A stretch of DNA of 64,000 bases, from the NCBI GenBank assembly GCA_021811185.1, contig JAJZPL010000016.1, positions 1 to 64,000 on the forward strand, read 5' to 3'. Made by a program: the position numbers and the translations under genes. This document shows, one piece after another, positions 44 to 59,604 of this stretch. Within the stretch, counting starts at the first letter, position 1. Every line of letters begins with the position of its first letter. The notes under the pieces were generated by a model that saw only the letters and a list, made by a program, of their open reading frames with translations, did no database searches and was not told the origin of the DNA. The DNA is from a bacterium. Its GTDB lineage: Bacteria > Elusimicrobiota > Elusimicrobia > Elusimicrobiales > UBA9959.

Positions 44-187
44 GGCGACCGGGGGACCGGGTTAGCAAAACCCTCGTGAGCCTGCCGCTTGCGTAAGCGC
101 GGCAGGCGAATGTGGAGTGAGGCCACGGTGTGGCCGAACGCGTTTTGCGTTCCGGTCCCCCGGCTGCCCCGACTTCACCTCTCGCGT
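44..187 (+). repeat. Structured repeat copy A (~110-nt hairpin 51-161 plus CCGACTTC tail), immediately upstream of the nrdG-like gene
   Basis: Closing stem gggggaccgg(51-60)/ccggtccccc(152-161); inner gcaaaac/gttttgc pairing; core motifs gcttgcgtaagcg and ggccacggtgtggcc; near-identical to the reverse complement of 58195-58338. Confidence 0.75.
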
Positions 188-230
188 TCTTATGCAGGAA
201 CATTCCTGCTTAAAAAAAATTTCTTCTTAT

Positions 231-956
231 ATGAAAATAGGCGCGGCGCTCGGCTTTAACTTAATAGACTACCCCGGCAAAATAGCCGCCGTAGCCTTCG
301 CGCCCGGCTGCAACTACAGCTGCCCCCACTGCCACGCCAAACCCATCCTCGGCGCCGCCGCCCCCATCAACGAAAAAGACTTCTTCAACTATTTAACCAC
401 CGTGCGCGACTGGGTCAGCGGCGTCGTCATCTGCGGCGGCGAACCCACCCTCCAGCCCGACCTCTTAACCTTCATCCGGCGCCTGCGCGAAGCCAACCTC
501 GCCGTAAAACTCGACACCAACGGCAGCAATCCCGCCGTGCTCGCCCGGCTGCTGGCGGAAGAACTTGTGGATTACGTAGCCATGGACATAAAAGGCCCCC
601 GGCACCTCTGGCCCAACCTCACCGCCAACCCCGGCGCCGAAAACGCCATGCTCGAAAGCATGCAGCTCGTAACCAGGTTCCCCACTTACGAATTCCGCAC
701 CACCGTAGCCCCCGTGCTCCGCGGGGGGGAAGATATCACTTTTCTCACCGTGCCCGAAATGAGCGCCGCCGCCAAAATGCTGGTGGAAGTAACCGGCGGC
801 AACACCCATAAATACTACGTACAGAAATTCGTGCCCAGGAAAGACGGCTTGGTGGACGCGCGCCTTGAGAGTTTCCCCGAAACCCCCGTCCAGCTGCTGC
901 AGGACATCCACGCCGAAGTTTTAAAGTACATCCCCAACACCCAGTTAAGAGGCTGA
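231..956 (+). CDS. nrdG: Radical SAM activating enzyme, anaerobic ribonucleotide reductase activase (NrdG/PflA-like)
   Basis: CNYSCPHC (CxxxCxxC) motif; GGEPTLQPDL glycine-rich SAM site; ATG at 231; the upstream part of ORF 117-956 overlaps the repeat element and is rejected. Confidence 0.7.
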   Translation: MKIGAALGFNLIDYPGKIAAVAFAPGCNYSCPHCHAKPILGAAAPINEKDFFNYLTTVRDWVSGVVICGGEPTLQPDLLTFIRRLREANLAVKLDTNGSNPAVLARLLAEELVDYVAMDIKGPRHLWPNLTANPGAENAMLESMQLVTRFPTYEFRTTVAPVLRGGEDITFLTVPEMSAAAKMLVEVTGGNTHKYYVQKFVPRKDGLVDARLESFPETPVQLLQDIHAEVLKYIPNTQLRG

Positions 957-957
957 T

Positions 958-1401
958 ATGAGCAAACTCGAAATAGCGGTACAGAAACTTTCCCCCGAAG
1001 TAAAAATGCCCGGCTACGCCCACGAAGGCGACGCCGGCCTGGACCTGTACTCCACCATCGACCACGTTTTACAGCCCGGCGCGCGCGTGCTCATCCCCAC
1101 CGGCCTCAAGATGGCCATCCCCCACGGGTACGAAGGCCAGGTGCGCCCGAAGTCCGGCCTCGCGCTGAAGCACGGCATTACCGTGCTCAACACCCCCGGC
1201 ACCGTGGACGCCCCCTACCGCGGCGAAGTCGGCGTCATCCTTATAAACCTGGACCCCAAAGCCGCCTACGAAATAAAGAAAGGCGAGAAAGTGGCCCAGA
1301 TGGTCTTCAACAAGATCGAATACGCGACGTTCAAGGAATCGGCGGAACTCGCCGAGACCACCCGCGGCGCCGGCGGCTTCGGCAGCACAGGCAAGCACTA
1401 A
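958..1401 (+). CDS. dut: dUTP diphosphatase
   Basis: Typical Dut motifs (AGLDL, PTG, GxVD, RSGL, RGxxGFGSTG); starts 2 nt after the nrdG-like stop. Confidence 0.9.
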   Translation: MSKLEIAVQKLSPEVKMPGYAHEGDAGLDLYSTIDHVLQPGARVLIPTGLKMAIPHGYEGQVRPKSGLALKHGITVLNTPGTVDAPYRGEVGVILINLDPKAAYEIKKGEKVAQMVFNKIEYATFKESAELAETTRGAGGFGSTGKH

Positions 1402-1429: not shown

Positions 1430-4219
<2,790 letters not shown>

Positions 4220-4287: not shown

Positions 4288-5841
4288 ATGAAAAAAATAT
4301 TCCTGACACTGGCTCTTCTTGCCGTTTTTTCGGGGCTTCACGCGCGGGCCCTGACCGTCGCCGTCTACCATACCTCGGACGCGCACGGCTGGTACTCCGC
4401 GCGGCCGGCGCGGTGGGATAACGAAAATCCCGCGCGCAGCATCGGCGGTTTCGCGGCGCTCTCGGCGCTGCTTAAAAAGGAGACCACCCCGTATGTCCTG
4501 CTGGATTCCGGCGACATGTCCCAGGGCACTCCGGAGGGCATTCTCACCAAGGGCATGGCCAGCATAGCGCTGATGAACCAGCTCGGCTATTCCGCCGCGG
4601 TCCCGGGCAACCACGATTTCGATTACGGCGAAGCCAATCTTAAGGTGCTGGTCTCCAGCGCGGCTTTCCCTTTCCTGGGCGCCAACGTGTATTCCAAGGC
4701 CGCCGGCGGCCGCGTCGCTTACCTTAAGCCTTACGCGATCCTCGAAAAAGGCGGCCGGAAGATAGCCGTGCTGGGCCTGCTCGGCCGGCATACGGCCACC
4801 TCCACCCTGCCGTCCAACGTGAAGCACCTGGATTTCCGCGAGGAGGCCGCCGAGACCGCCAAATGGCTCCCGGAGATAAAGCGGCAGAACCCCGACGCGG
4901 TCATCGTGCTCACGCACCTCGGCCTCAGCGAGGACCTGAGCCTTAAGCGGGTGGATATCTCCACCTGGACCTTCGACCCGCCGCCCTTCGGCACGCTGAT
5001 GATAGCGCGGGCGGCGCCCGGCGTAGACCTGGTGCTGGGCGGGCATAACCACGCCGCGCTGCTGCGGGGCTACCACGACCCGGTCTCCGGCGCCTGGCTG
5101 GGCGAAAGCGGCTACGGGCTCTCTTACGTTACCAGGGCGGAGCTGAATTTTAACGACGCTACCGGCAAGCTCGAGGACATTAAGGTGAACGTTCTCCCGC
5201 TCTGGACGGACCAGACCGGCCAGGACCCGCTGGTGCTTAAGACCATAGCCGGTTTTAACGCCCAGGTGGACCGCGAGATGGGCCGGGTGATAGGCCGCGC
5301 GGCCTCCGGCCTGGGCGCCGCTCCCGACGGCCTCGATTCGCCCATAGGCGGCTGGCTGTGCGACATAAGCCGCAAGGCGACGGGCGCGGATATGGCTTTT
5401 CATAATACCAAGGCTTTAAGGGCTGAGATAAAGAAAGGCCCGGTGCGGCTGCGGGATATCTTCCAGGCGATGCCGTTCGACAATACCCTCATCACCATGA
5501 GGCTGAACGGCGCGCAGCTCAAGCGCCTGATGGCCGACAACCTGCGCGGCGGCTGGAGCGCCGTCCAGGTCTCCGGCCTGCGGGTGAAGTTCAGGCCCGG
5601 GCCAGGCGGCAAACCCTCCGAAATACGTCTCGAGCGCAACGGGCGCGAGATCAAGCCCGGGGAAGAATTCCTGGTGGCCACCAACAACTACCTGGCTTTC
5701 GGCGGCAACGGCGGCGGTGTTTTCTCCGAAGGCAGGGATATTAAAGACACCATGCTCCCCGTGCGGGACGTGATGATAAAGGCTTTCTCCAAAGGCCCGG
5801 TAAAGGCGCCGGAACACGGCAGGATAAGAAGGCTCAAATAA
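4288..5841 (+). CDS. Secreted 5'-nucleotidase / calcineurin-like metallophosphoesterase (UshA-like)
   Basis: Signal peptide; DAHG...GDxxQG...GNHDFDYG metallophosphatase motifs; C-terminal 5'-nucleotidase substrate domain. Confidence 0.8.
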   Translation: MKKIFLTLALLAVFSGLHARALTVAVYHTSDAHGWYSARPARWDNENPARSIGGFAALSALLKKETTPYVLLDSGDMSQGTPEGILTKGMASIALMNQLGYSAAVPGNHDFDYGEANLKVLVSSAAFPFLGANVYSKAAGGRVAYLKPYAILEKGGRKIAVLGLLGRHTATSTLPSNVKHLDFREEAAETAKWLPEIKRQNPDAVIVLTHLGLSEDLSLKRVDISTWTFDPPPFGTLMIARAAPGVDLVLGGHNHAALLRGYHDPVSGAWLGESGYGLSYVTRAELNFNDATGKLEDIKVNVLPLWTDQTGQDPLVLKTIAGFNAQVDREMGRVIGRAASGLGAAPDGLDSPIGGWLCDISRKATGADMAFHNTKALRAEIKKGPVRLRDIFQAMPFDNTLITMRLNGAQLKRLMADNLRGGWSAVQVSGLRVKFRPGPGGKPSEIRLERNGREIKPGEEFLVATNNYLAFGGNGGGVFSEGRDIKDTMLPVRDVMIKAFSKGPVKAPEHGRIRRLK

Positions 5842-5887
5842 TATAGAATTTGGTTGGACGTGAAACGGTATTTCTCTAGGGAGGCTT

Positions 5888-19087: not shown

Positions 19088-19912
19088 GTGCATATAATGA
19101 AAAACAATAAATTTATCCTAGCCGCTATCGCCGCGGCTTTCATGTTCGGCTGCCAGGCTAAGCCCGAAGTGGTCCGGCTGGCCACTACCACCAGCGTGCA
19201 GGACACCGGCCTGCTGGACGTGGTCGCCGAAGCTTTCCAGAAGGACGGCAAATATAAACTTCAGGCCATCGCCGTGGGTTCCGGCCAGGCCATGCAGCTC
19301 GGGAAGACCGGCGAAGCCGACATCCTGTGGGTGCACAGCCCCGACGACGAAAAACAATTCGTCGAAGAAGGCTTCGGCATCGACCGCACCACCTTCCTGC
19401 ATAACGACTTCGTGCTCCTCGGCCCCGCCGCGGACCCCGCCAAAGTGAAGGGCGTTAAAAAAGCCGCCGACGCTTTCAAAAAGATAGCCGCCGCCAAGGC
19501 GTTGTTCGTCTCCCGCGGCGACAAGTCCGGCACGCACAAGAAAGAGCTCAAGATCTGGGACGCCGCCAAGGTGAAACCCGCCGGCGACAAGTACATAGAG
19601 GCCGGGCAGGGCATGGCCGCCACGCTGACGCTGGCCAACGAGAAGAACGCCTATACGCTGGCGGACCGTTCCACGTACCTCTCCATGAAGGACAAGCTCG
19701 GCCTGGTGATAGTATGCGAGGGCGACGAAGCGCTGCTCAACCGCTACAGCCTGATCCTGGTGAACCCCGCCAAATTCCCCAAGGTCAACGCCGCCGGGGC
19801 CAGGGCCTTCTTCGATTTCGTGCTGTCCGCGCCGGCTAAAGAACTTATAGAGAGGTTCGGCCGGGACAAGTACGGCAAGCAGCTGTTCTTCTACGATTAC
19901 GCGGTAAAATAA
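19088..19912 (+). CDS. tupA: Tungstate ABC transporter substrate-binding lipoprotein (TupA family)
   Basis: Lipoprotein signal (FMFGC); RLATTTSVQDTGLLDVV anion-binding motif typical of TupA/WtpA. Confidence 0.8.
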   Translation: MHIMKNNKFILAAIAAAFMFGCQAKPEVVRLATTTSVQDTGLLDVVAEAFQKDGKYKLQAIAVGSGQAMQLGKTGEADILWVHSPDDEKQFVEEGFGIDRTTFLHNDFVLLGPAADPAKVKGVKKAADAFKKIAAAKALFVSRGDKSGTHKKELKIWDAAKVKPAGDKYIEAGQGMAATLTLANEKNAYTLADRSTYLSMKDKLGLVIVCEGDEALLNRYSLILVNPAKFPKVNAAGARAFFDFVLSAPAKELIERFGRDKYGKQLFFYDYAVK

Positions 19913-19930
19913 GAGCGGTTACAGGATAAA

Positions 19931-20632
19931 ATGGGCTTCATAGCGGAGGGCTTCAGGCAGGCCCTGCACCTTATCTTCTCGGGCGACCCCGAGATCTTCG
20001 GCATAGTGCGCCTTTCGCTCACGGTCTCCGTGCTGGCTACCTGCGCGGCCGCCCTGCTTGGCGTGCCGCTGGGCAGCTGGGTAGCCGTAAAGAAATTCCC
20101 GCTCAAGAGGCTCGTCATAACGCTCGCCAATACCGGCATGGGCCTGCCGCCGGTGGTGGCCGGCCTGGTGGTAATGCTGTTCCTGTCCAGGAGCGGGCCG
20201 CTGGCCTTCCTCAACTGGCTCTACACGCCTTACGGTATGGTGCTCGTCCAGTTCCTAATAGCGCTTCCGATAATAACCGCGCTGACCATAGCCGCCATGC
20301 AGGGCGTGGACCCCAGGTTCTACCAGCAGGTGCTCACGCTGGGCGCCACCGACTGGCAGGCCATCCTGGTCAGCATTAAGGAGCAGCGCCTGGCCGTGCT
20401 GGCCGCGGTGATAGCCGGCTTCGGCCGGCTTACCGCCGAGGTGGGCGCGGTGATGATAGTGGGCGGCAATATCCGTTACGAGACCCGCGTGCTGACCACC
20501 GCCACCGTGCTGGAAACGCAGAAAGGAAATTTCGACCTGGCCATAGCGCTGGGGCTGGTGCTGCTGGCGCTGAGCCTGGCCGTGAACCTGGCCCTCACCT
20601 GGGCGCAGCAGCGCAAGGCGGCGGCGCGATGA
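19931..20632 (+). CDS. tupB: Tungstate ABC transporter permease
   Basis: ABC permease with EAA-like loop; follows tupA. Confidence 0.8.
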   Translation: MGFIAEGFRQALHLIFSGDPEIFGIVRLSLTVSVLATCAAALLGVPLGSWVAVKKFPLKRLVITLANTGMGLPPVVAGLVVMLFLSRSGPLAFLNWLYTPYGMVLVQFLIALPIITALTIAAMQGVDPRFYQQVLTLGATDWQAILVSIKEQRLAVLAAVIAGFGRLTAEVGAVMIVGGNIRYETRVLTTATVLETQKGNFDLAIALGLVLLALSLAVNLALTWAQQRKAAAR

Positions 20633-23817: not shown

Positions 23818-23846
23818 GAGCACGGTTTGCTTCGGAGGGGTGGCGA

Positions 23847-23992
23847 GGGTCTGGGTTCGGCGGACCGTCGCGGAGGCCGAGGCTTACGCAAGCGACGAGG
23901 CCGAGTGACGAGGCGCGAGCACGGTGTGCGAGACGCCGTGTCCGCCGGGCCCAGACCCTCGACAGGACCCCGACTTCACATCTCGACGTGAG
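23847..23992 (+). repeat. Structured repeat copy B (divergent; hairpin 23847-23958 plus CCGACTTC tail) between moaA and moaC
   Basis: Outer stem gggtctggg/cccagaccc; inner cggcggac/gtccgccg; core gaggccgaggcttacgcaagcgacgaggccgagtga and cacggtgtg shared with copy C; tail ccccgacttcacatctcg. Confidence 0.65.
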
Positions 23993-24019
23993 TTGCAAAC
24001 CGTTTCTAAAAGGACCCAA

Positions 24020-43736: not shown

Positions 43737-43811
43737 TGGTGCGCCCGACAGGAATCGAACCTGTACAACCGCCTTCGCAGGGCGGGACTCTATCCGTTGA
43801 GATACGGGCGC
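43737..43811 (-). tRNA. tRNA-Arg (anticodon GCG as read by hand)
   Basis: Cloverleaf GCGCCCG/CGGGCGC acceptor; D-loop AACGGATA; anticodon stem CCGCC/GGCGG with loop CTGCGAA; T-loop TTCGATT; encoded CCA. Confidence 0.75.
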
Positions 43812-58182: not shown

Positions 58183-58194
58183 ACCGATCTTACA

Positions 58195-58338
58195 TTCGGA
58201 CCGCGAGAAGCGAAGTCTGGTGCGTCCAGGGGGACCGGAACGCAAAACGCGCTCGGCCACACCGTGGCCTCGCTCGACATTCGGCCCTCGCGCTATGCAA
58301 GCTCGGGCCTCACGACGGTTTTGCTAACCCGGTCCCCC
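58195..58338 (-). repeat. Structured repeat copy D (inverted relative to copy A; hairpin 58229-58338)
   Basis: Reverse complement nearly identical to copy A including the gggggaccgg/ccggtccccc closing stem; tail ccagacttcgcttctcgcg. Confidence 0.75.
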
Positions 58339-58389
58339 TGTCCACACCCTCCGCTTGTTAGGTTCCAAGTAAGAAAGTAATTTTTGAAA

Positions 58390-58689
58390 ATGAAAAAATT
58401 TAAATTAGCATTAAGCTTGTTGGTGGCTTTAAGCTTTATGCACTATGTTTTTCAATTTTTTGCGTGGAGCTATGCGCCAGGTAATGCTGCTCCGATGGCC
58501 GGGAATCCTGGATATTGGCAGCATATTGCTTGGCCGGTGTTGTCCTTTCCTGCGTTTTGGCTGTTTTCCAACTGGGCGACAGAATACTTTGGAACTGTAT
58601 CTGTTTTGAATAGTTTGATCTGGGGGGTTCTGCTTACTAAAGTGTTTTTATGGCAATGGGGGAAGCATGTTCGGCAAACTGTAAAATAA
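58390..58689 (+). CDS. Small AT-rich-encoded membrane protein (99 aa, 2-3 TM, Trp/Phe-rich)
   Basis: Marked compositional contrast (AT-rich codons) to the flanking DNA; hydrophobic segments; bracketed by inverted repeat copies D and C. Confidence 0.45.
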   Translation: MKKFKLALSLLVALSFMHYVFQFFAWSYAPGNAAPMAGNPGYWQHIAWPVLSFPAFWLFSNWATEYFGTVSVLNSLIWGVLLTKVFLWQWGKHVRQTVK

Positions 58690-58795
58690 GGACAGCGGCC
58701 TGTTTCTGCCAGTTGTTTAACCGCCGGGGGACTGGCGGTTTTGTTTTGTAAGGGGACTAGGGATGGGCACTTGGGAATTAAGCGGAGGCGGCGGA

Positions 58796-58940
58796 CTGGG
58801 GTGCCGGGTTAGCAAAACCCTCACGGAGGCCGAGGCTTGCGTAAGCGACGAGGCCGAGTGAGGAGGGGCGGCTACGGTGTGGCCGACCCCGTGTTTTGCG
58901 TTCCGGCACCCCAGGCCGCCACCGACTTCGCTATCCTGCG
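58796..58940 (+). repeat. Structured repeat copy C (hairpin 58796-58914 plus CCGACTTC tail)
   Basis: Closing stem ctggggtgccgg/ccggcaccccag (compensatory relative to copies A and D); gttagcaaaaccc and gttttgcgttcc shared. Confidence 0.75.
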
Positions 58941-58956
58941 GAATAAAAAAATATTG

Positions 58957-59604
58957 TTACAGCGAGCGGCCGGAGGCGCGGGCGATGTCCTTGTACAGGC
59001 GGTAGCTGGCGGCCAGGGCGGCGTCCACGCAGGAAAGGGAGAACGGGGTCAGCGTGGCCGTCTCCTCGAGGGGGATCCGGTAAAGGCAGCAGTAGTCGGC
59101 TACTTCCATGCGGGCGCTGGCCAGGGCGGCGTCGGCCGAGCGCTCCAGGGGCTCGGCCTCTACGCGCTTTACGAGCGCGTCGAAATGCAGCCGCGAGTAA
59201 GCCCCCTTTATGTGCCGCTCCGCCTCGGGGTCCCTGCCGGCGGTTTTCTTTTCCTCTTTTATTATCGAGAACGGTTCCAGCGCGGAGAGGCGCTGCTCTA
59301 TGAACGCCGGGCTGCCGGCCATGGCGGCGCCTACCCTTTTGAAGTCCGTCTCTGAAATAAGCCGGTCCAGCCCGGACCTGAAGTCCTCCGCGGCTCCCGG
59401 CGTAGCTTTTCCGGACTTGAGTTTCTGGACGAAGGCGGCGCACAGCTCCGCCAGGGTTTCCCTCTGGAGGTCGGCCAGGTATTCCGCCATGTTGTGGAAG
59501 GAGGTCAGGAAAAAATCTTTCTCGCTGGTGTAGCCCCTCGGGGGCGCGCCGGTGAACGTCCTTAAGGCCGCGACTAGCATCAGCTGGTTCCGCATTTTCG
59601 CCAT
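58957..59604 (-). CDS. Hypothetical protein downstream of the RND efflux operon
   Basis: 215-aa ORF with GC-rich codon usage; no recognised domain. Confidence 0.45.
   Translation of the reverse strand: MAKMRNQLMLVAALRTFTGAPPRGYTSEKDFFLTSFHNMAEYLADLQRETLAELCAAFVQKLKSGKATPGAAEDFRSGLDRLISETDFKRVGAAMAGSPAFIEQRLSALEPFSIIKEEKKTAGRDPEAERHIKGAYSRLHFDALVKRVEAEPLERSADAALASARMEVADYCCLYRIPLEETATLTPFSLSCVDAALAASYRLYKDIARASGRSL

Follow-up and report, generated by a model that had tools for sequence, protein, structure and literature searches.

Repetitive extragenic palindromic (REP) units, REP doublets forming hairpins (REPINs) and MITEs (miniature inverted-repeat transposable elements) are the described systems closest to the repeats reported here. 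REP units are 20-40 nt long; one end bears a conserved tag, GTAG or CGTC (PMC3733652). In REPINs, inverted arms and their spacer fold as a hairpin, across which compensatory changes are common (PMC3116915). The hallmarks of MITEs have been set out previously, and MITEs sometimes bracket genes as composite units (PMC3184786). The present analysis concerns four copies (A, B, C and D) of a structured intergenic repeat in a stretch of 64,000 nucleotides of an Elusimicrobia genome (contig JAJZPL010000016.1, assembly GCA_021811185.1), the whole of which is called the window. The Elusimicrobia are known almost solely from metagenome-assembled genomes (MAGs) and, to our knowledge, nothing has been described of their repeat content. 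The repeats look like small parasitic mobile DNA, not gene-regulating RNA, and they probably represent a large family of palindromic intergenic elements of the MITE/REP/REPIN kind, mobile but non-autonomous and handled as a folded single strand.

Like REPs and REPINs, the repeats are non-coding, high-copy and extragenic, with inverted arms and a spacer that form a hairpin in single-stranded DNA or mRNA; they show no target-site duplication, persist vertically with turnover, and would be moved by an enzyme encoded elsewhere. As in bacterial interspersed mosaic elements (BIMEs), units of different subtypes form higher-order groups in inverted orientation. Unlike REPs (about 35 nt) and REPINs (about 70-110 nt), the Elusimicrobia unit is 155-230 nt long, lacks the GTAG or CGTC tag and has the head motif GGAGG, has no linked RAYT gene like the single-copy, repeat-flanked one of REP/REPIN genomes, and appears mobile as a solo unit. 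In REPINs the arms are conserved and the spacer is variable, whereas in the Elusimicrobia repeats the arms covary and the forked tip, internal loop, head and tail are invariant. A hairpin with compensatory changes was shared with the REP/REPIN group, and short tagged REP units were not found.

ERIC, RU-2, Correia (CREE) and Nezha MITEs resemble the repeats in being non-autonomous elements of 100-230 bp with terminal inverted repeats and a long predicted stem-loop, located between genes in either orientation and present or absent between relatives. They differ in having target-site duplications (TA for ERIC and Correia) and ends that match an insertion sequence (IS), and none has been described with an invariant-loop three-way-junction tip, a strict head-to-head rule or a nested mini-hairpin. 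Among general MITE characters, small size (under about 400 bp), many dispersed copies, lack of an internal transposase and terminal inverted repeats were all present, and a target-site duplication was not. The kind of element is known; the family is set apart by its tip, its freely covarying arms and its mini-hairpin module, and further by the head-to-head rule with single low-GC genes between partners and by in-place replacement or flipping of the interior.

Fold and covariation of the repeats

A covariance model built on the four copies placed them at 42-194 (A, + strand), 23836-23995 (B, +), 58194-58346 (C, -) and 58789-58947 (D, +), with scores of 150-166 bits. The original prediction, made from the sequence without database searches, had put them at 44-187, 23847-23992, 58195-58338 and 58796-58940; all four were present, off by a few bases. 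No fifth copy was found in the window by the model with its filters off. The pattern ACGGTGTG-N(28-55)-GACTTC gave four matches in the window and none in 100 shuffles. The copies align over about 155 nt with a mean column identity of 74%.

The single strand of each window copy folds as a long stem with its tip forked into two short hairpins. The stem contains a conserved internal loop, in which GTTA faces GTT, followed by the gcaaaac/gttttgc helix and then the fork, whose hairpin tips are invariant (GCTTGCGTAAGC or GGTTGCATAGCC, and CACGGTGTG). The stem is flanked by conserved unpaired sequence, with GGAGG as the head and CCGACTTC..TCTCGCGG as the tail. The stems that had been predicted, gggggaccgg/ccggtccccc, gcaaaac/gttttgc and those with the gcttgcgtaagc and ggccacggtgtggcc tips, were all recovered. 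Both of the proposed compensatory variants of the outer stem are real; gggtctggg/cccagaccc stood as described, while ggggtgccgg/ccggcacccc belongs to the fourth copy (58789-58947) and not to the inverted third. The proposed hairpin of about 110 nt exists and its true extent is larger, with copy-specific outer inverted repeats: in copy A, GTTCCTGC at 30-37 pairs with GCAGGAAC at 194-201 and lengthens the hairpin, and in copy B ACGGTTTGC at 23822-23830 pairs with GCAAACCGT at 23995-24003. Across the family, the unit has a conserved core of about 155 nt and measures about 185-230 nt including outer arms.

Folding energies of the window copies ranged from -79 to -92 kcal/mol (z = -6.7 to -8.3), and none of 200 shuffles was as stable. 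RNAalifold on the four copies showed double-sided change in 16 of 43 pairs. Family covariation was computed on an alignment of 103 copies, with 500 shuffles and with the partner column slid by 1-3 columns as controls. In this alignment, 94.9% of cells were paired, compared with 74.1% in shuffles, and double-sided changes occurred in 39 of the 43 pairs (761 cells); none of the 500 shuffles matched the observed values, and pairing fell to 36-50% when partners were slid. The arms covary freely (up to 5-6 types of pair at a position), the unpaired loops do not vary, and the two inner hairpins show compensatory changes of their own. The four-copy RNAalifold result and the single-sequence folds agree with the 103-copy covariation. 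The covariation first noticed in four copies is real and much stronger in the family. It had been taken as the hallmark of a selected fold; alone it cannot tell an RNA from a mobile hairpin, because REPIN-type mobile hairpins also carry compensatory changes (PMC3116915).

Size and distribution of the family

At least 167 copies were detected by covariance model across the window and 124 loci (designated below by L numbers), and the structure was retained in them, so the family extends well beyond the four copies first seen. A profile search with nhmmer contributed just 4 more fragments, which indicates that the solo copies (about two thirds of all copies) are truly solo. No open reading frame is conserved across copies; the units encode nothing.

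A strict three-anchor pattern matched four stretches among the genomes of 185,579 species, all of them in Elusimicrobia MAGs. A second pattern matched at least 120 stretches in metagenome contigs and none in viral contigs, and the family was not matched in plasmid, phage and viral collections. As far as seen, the family is restricted to Elusimicrobia, and the only named carrier genomes are Elusimicrobia MAGs. Rfam, the searchable literature and the plasmid, phage and viral collections yielded no description of the family.

The window matches contig DAHVYP010000081.1 (GCA_027327645.1) with an offset of one base, and that contig begins just before copy A. Many metagenome contigs end within a copy (L024, L073, L079, L120, L103, L097, L061, L090, L013 and L012), as expected of a high-copy repeat that breaks short-read assemblies. 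The repeats also fill intergenic gaps in otherwise very compact operons, and for annotation they should be masked rather than called as an RNA gene.

Gain, loss and replacement at orthologous sites

Comparison of orthologous sites showed that units had been gained and lost between genes and, in the course of evolution, replaced or inverted where they stood. Several loci share synteny with the window. The moaA-moaC gap, wholly occupied by copy B in the window, is empty in the syntenic L099 (stop codon, one base, ATG) and in L035 holds a copy in the opposite orientation. The reverse was also seen: the gap between moaC and the next gene holds a copy in L099 and none in the window, and the window gap 19912-19931 is empty where L047 holds a copy. 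L072 is filled and L106 empty between flanks that are 87-89% identical, the entire hairpin with its outer arms being absent from L106; L091 and L096 are filled at a site that is empty in L021.

At 8 of 15 orthologous sites the copies disagreed in orientation. L065 and L122 have 95-97% identical flanks and matching outer arms around a different (83% identity) and inverted interior; L107 and L114 resemble this case. So interiors appear to have been overwritten or re-inserted in either orientation, which also explains how a young interior can sit within older, site-specific outer arms. At other orthologous sites the entire element differs, which points to independent insertions in the same narrow gap. 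Copies nevertheless persist at orthologous sites over about 20% divergence. Of the two readings offered by the original prediction, the REP/MITE-like mobile hairpin is favoured by the presence/absence differences, the random orientation and the discordant sites.

An origin of the outer arms by insertion into pre-existing terminator hairpins was considered and is unsupported where a close empty site is available, the entire hairpin being absent from L106. Nested insertion into older copies is possible. Separately, the site at L048:5700-5880 (reverse strand), scored as empty relative to L053:12230-12520, retains GCGGTCCGCC, which is like the 3' arm CCGGTCCGCC of the L053 element; the site may have lost an element by deletion or excision, rather than having always been empty.

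A young subfamily is represented at unrelated sites by at least 12 copies, which share 90-96% identity across about 185 nt and end in the terminal inverted repeats TGCCGGCGG / CCGCCGGCA. Element ends fade and are not sharp. In half of the young copies the flanks prolong the palindrome (9-12 of 14 positions matching, compared with 4.1 in controls). Target-site duplications, suggested as a check, were not found: the best direct repeat around the 12 young copies had a mean of 1.83 nt, compared with 1.72 nt in mismatched flanks, and none was visible at filled/empty site pairs.

These ends bear on the first alternative, that of a classical MITE, in which an IS deletion derivative would be cut and pasted by a DDE transposase through its double-stranded terminal inverted repeats and the hairpin would be a mere by-product. 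A size of 155-230 bp with no coding capacity, terminal inverted repeats like those of the young subfamily, and dispersed intergenic copies with presence/absence polymorphism agree with it, and the gene-bracketing pairs recall MITE-flanked composites such as IMU (PMC3184786). However, this explanation is unlikely given the missing target-site duplication, the fading ends with flanks that often prolong the palindrome, the consistent strand asymmetry and the inner hairpins with their own compensatory changes. The arms covary while the unpaired loops are invariant, and a sequence-specific double-strand binder predicts the opposite. Neither the 0.93 Mb of loci nor the plasmid, phage and viral collections yielded an IS with matching termini. 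Clustering of 736 neighbouring proteins gave only ordinary paralogous families. The 0.93 Mb contains neither a Y1/HUH transposase nor any recurrent transposase-like protein, in agreement with the reported absence of a nearby transposase, and tblastn of the loci with approximate IS200 TnpA and E. coli RAYT queries gave nothing credible.

Relation to transcription and strand asymmetry

Genes were called on all loci with a simple codon-usage caller. Solo copies between co-directional genes were in sense orientation in 26 cases and antisense in 34, and a riboswitch or leader was rejected on these orientation statistics. Convergent and divergent gaps were occupied in ordinary proportions. The 75 nt upstream of 69 anchored copies contained no conserved promoter or motif (maximum 0.36 bits per position), and a sigma-70 scan near the window copies was at shuffle level; with no upstream positional signal, an independent small RNA (sRNA) gene with its own promoter was also rejected. 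An intrinsic terminator was rejected as well, since no T tract lies 3' of the element hairpin, and the only terminator-like site belongs to the gene enclosed by copies C and D. Around solo copies, head-side DNA is AT-richer (0.504 vs 0.572 GC, p = 1e-5) and the tail is nearer to the neighbouring gene.

With RNA parameters, 142 of 149 copies fold more stably as the sense strand than as the complementary one (mean -8.4 kcal/mol); with DNA parameters, 138 of 149 do so (mean -4.1 kcal/mol). Helix mismatches comprised 90 G-T and 47 A-C, and one G-U (G-T) pair is conserved in 74 of 103 copies. Double-sided Watson-Crick changes far outnumber one-sided G-U intermediates in the 103-copy alignment, an excess that suits a DNA hairpin no less than an RNA.

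A functional structured RNA, whether an independent sRNA family or a cis module (an RNase III site, or a hairpin that stabilises or insulates mRNA) with spread as a secondary matter, would be consistent with strong covariation in all helices around invariant loops, with the conserved G-U pair and the excess of G-T over A-C, with the better folding of the sense strand under RNA parameters, with optional extra stems at the junctions as in many RNA families, and with the retention of copies at orthologous sites. It is quite unlikely all the same. Rfam 15 recognised a tRNA only in the whole window at gathering thresholds, and on the copies even at E up to 10 its best scores (12-18 bits vs thresholds of 43-168 bits) were noise. 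There is no conserved promoter or fixed-distance upstream motif, orientation is random relative to flanking genes and flipped at orthologous sites, and one-sided G-U intermediates are rare relative to double-sided changes. Copy D lies behind the terminator of the enclosed gene and faces a convergent gene, and copy C is antisense to glgA read-through. The sites are dispensable, because they are empty in relatives. The cis-regulatory RNA of the original prediction is disfavoured on the same grounds of empty sites, unbiased and discordant orientation, lack of a promoter and a cargo terminator before D. Strong base-pair covariation can arise in mobile DNA, which calls for caution in structure-based discovery of non-coding RNA.

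A mini-hairpin module of about 26 nt, (G)CGTGGAGCG(A/C)AGCGACAC(TTTCTTG), was found only in or beside elements, on the strand of the host element in 14 of 15 cases. Each of the fork's three single-stranded junctions can house it, and in one copy (L119:9541-9757) all three do. Further sites are L004:4634-4650, L029:4059-4075, L048:3709-3724, L094:1730-1745, L113:336-351, L033:7015-7030 and L083:7323-7338; the four window copies are without it. The core of the module contains GCGAAGC, the classic hyper-stable DNA mini-hairpin, which is a lead toward single-stranded DNA rather than a test.

Head-to-head pairs and their cargo

Neighbouring copies less than 1.5 kb apart were head-to-head (-,+) in 26 of 28 cases; one was (+,+), one was (-,-) and none was tail-to-tail (+,-). 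Sixteen pairs have spacers of 16-80 bp without conserved sequence. Nine pairs have spacers of 390-920 bp, each with one gene on either strand, and eight of these nine spacers have a GC content 0.07-0.23 under that of their locus. The genes carried in them encode small membrane proteins, signal-peptide proteins and a GNAT acetyltransferase. A wider pair of 1,229 bp (GC 0.57 vs 0.61 for the locus) encloses two genes, one of them for a CsgG-like lipoprotein. No transposase occurs among the cargo genes, which are orphans or of unrelated families. Where wider 'pairs' enclose native-GC genes, the copies are neighbours by coincidence.

The pair in the window is formed by copies C and D. Between their 5' ends lies a low-GC insert (58347-58788; 442 bp, 45% GC vs 63% for the window) with one cargo gene (58390-58689, +), encoding a predicted small membrane protein of 99 amino acids with no Pfam family. 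The cargo protein has one homologue only among 5.8 billion proteins, in the same arrangement (L126). A hairpin with a T tract, resembling an intrinsic terminator of the cargo gene (58719-58750, +), lies upstream of copy D, so that D is outside the 3' end of the cargo transcript. In L002 (Elusimicrobia bacterium GWA2_61_42) the orthologous C/D pair has a spacer of just 77 bp, compared with 442 bp in the window, and the unit subtypes are swapped between the partners, as expected from whole-pair inversion or conversion.

Pairs as recent inverted duplications were rejected: the similarity of partners was 0.60, compared with 0.64 for random copies, so partners are no more alike than random copies and often less so, and one partner is often of a divergent subtype. 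A composite transposon with cargo was rejected as well, since no cargo was found in a second context; the one apparent match, between L053 and L048, is a native-GC gene with independent insertions around it.

It is very unlikely that the head-to-head pair is the functional unit, as a host or cassette recombination or architectural site for gene capture, inversion, exchange or protein binding with solo copies as by-products, for although the orientation rule, the one-gene low-GC spacers, the window/L002 difference in insert and subtypes, and partners that mostly belong to different subtypes (as Y and Z REPs do in BIMEs) suit it, about two thirds of copies are solo and clearly insert alone (copy B, L099 and L072), no integrase or recombinase recurs by pairs, no cargo was found in two genomic contexts, simple site-specific recombination at inverted sites inverts a cassette and does not insert or excise it, and the core features of integron attC are absent. 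A related idea, a long shot, is that the pairs are a non-integron cassette system, a slot where single foreign genes would be captured, inverted or exchanged via an enzyme acting on single-stranded DNA. The forked hairpin would be the recognition site of this putative enzyme, and the same single-strand chemistry would give rise, as a by-product, to the 26-nt module, which inserts only into unpaired junctions. If true, the cassette system would be a hairpin-based route to accessory genes in Elusimicrobia.

Three further arrangements were observed beside other copies. To the right of the cargo-gene homologue, L126:458-600 begins like the head of an element (GGAGGGGGCGGCCGGGGGATTA...) and then diverges; it was not called by the model and is either a decayed partner or a different subfamily. 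L109:2818-3313 (with an identical region at L021:6-291) holds a triplet of a divergent minus copy and two abutting plus copies (3008-3163 and 3160-3313), which is among the few direct tandem arrangements. Between copies 3.1 kb apart, L015:5463-6725 encodes a coiled-coil protein of 420 amino acids with a C-terminal globular part and no Pfam family; the gene adjoins a lipoprotein-like orphan of 330 amino acids and could be part of an accessory or defence island.

Proposed mechanism

For a mobile palindromic element, gain and loss, turnover in place, indifference to transcription, a constrained fold, strand asymmetry and a lack of target-site duplication, all observed here, suggest the following course. 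Recognition and movement would occur in trans and act on a folded single strand of one polarity, most likely of DNA. The mover would be an enzyme encoded elsewhere in the genome, akin to the HUH tyrosine transposases that act on REP/REPIN and IS200/IS605 ends. Gene conversion, or re-insertion into hairpins already present, may overwrite the interiors of old copies. Two head-to-head units may make up a unit of higher order, with single low-GC accessory genes accumulating or being carried at its centre. If a fold-recognising enzyme is found, it could reveal a new structure-specific DNA transaction and a gene-acquisition route in Elusimicrobia.

Several points weigh against this account. The choice of single-stranded DNA over RNA is one that we infer, and common ancestry accounts for part of the strand asymmetry, so that copies are not independent trials. 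The 103-copy alignment was fitted to the covariance model, which somewhat favours structure. Movement is deduced from between-species comparisons at 75-97% identity and not from an observed event, and the filled/empty pairs are too diverged to exclude a duplication of 2-3 bp at every site. No enzyme is tied to the elements; the 0.93 Mb of loci covers little of each genome, and in a biased way. Extra assumptions are needed for the head-to-head rule and for the low-GC cargo, and single copies flip, yet pairs hold one arrangement.

Comparison with systems recognised as single strands or folded ends

The ends of IS200/IS605 elements and of their derivatives that lack a transposase (PATEs) are imperfect hairpins recognised on one strand, strand-specific, with no need of terminal repeats and no target-site duplication. 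Such elements carry a different small subterminal hairpin at each end, left and right, and use a fixed target of 4-5 nt. Unlike these, the Elusimicrobia element is a single large symmetric hairpin for which no fixed target was seen.

Integron attC sites are also imperfect palindromes (up to about 140 nt) with structure conserved more than sequence, they are recognised as a folded single strand, as the Elusimicrobia repeats probably are, and they likewise adjoin small, often low-GC, promoter-less or orphan genes. The Elusimicrobia repeats differ in lacking the paired RYYYAAC/GTTRRRY core, GTT facing GTT in an unpaired internal loop, and in flanking cargo in inverted orientation, with no arrays, no intI nearby and hundreds of copies dispersed among housekeeping genes.

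The inverted terminal repeats (ITRs) of parvoviruses such as adeno-associated virus (AAV) are about 125-145 nt long, with a long stem, two inner palindromes (T or Y shape), a single-stranded tail and a GAGY-rich stretch. The repeats resemble them in that two inverted copies bracket cargo, the fold is T- or Y-shaped with a single-stranded tail, and a GAGY-rich stretch is present. In contrast to AAV, whose tail points toward the cargo, the Elusimicrobia tail points away from it; the copies are chromosomal, multi-copy and mostly solo, with no Rep gene and no matches in viral contigs, and flip/flop of the tip relative to the tail was not seen. Resemblances to the 3' end of 16S rRNA and to the AAV Rep-binding element, seen by eye, were dropped as unsupported.

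Window copies and neighbouring genes

The genes around the window copies include radical-SAM activase-like, moaA, moaC, glycogen-synthase-like and AcrB-type pump genes, among others. The contexts given in the original prediction were correct: A upstream of an nrdG-like (radical-SAM activase-like) gene, B between moaA and moaC, and C and D bracketing an AT-rich insert.

Copy A (30-201 with outer arms, core 42-194, +) scored 158 bits with a folding energy of -91.4 kcal/mol (z -8.3); it lies upstream of the radical-SAM activase-like gene at 231-956, and its ortholog is retained in L032. Copy B (23822-24003, core 23836-23995, +) scored 156.9 bits (z -7.2). Copy C (58194-58346, -), the left partner of the head-to-head pair, scored 149.7 bits (z -6.7), and its 3' tail is directed left, toward the stop codon (58182) of the glgA-like gene. 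Copy D (58789-58947, +), the right partner, scored 165.9 bits (z -7.2) and carries the ggggtgccgg/ccggcacccc stem variant; its tail stops 9 nt short of the stop codon of the convergent gene 58957-59604 (-).

Two other features of the window were observed. The gene for an M16 peptidase of 929 amino acids (1430-4219) is missing from the syntenic L032, where about 145 bp separate the matches to window positions 51-1400 and 4360-5842; the relatives differ here by an indel the size of a gene, next to the element-bearing gap. A tRNA gene at 43740-43811 (-), the sole Rfam match in the window with 62 bits, is unrelated to the repeats.

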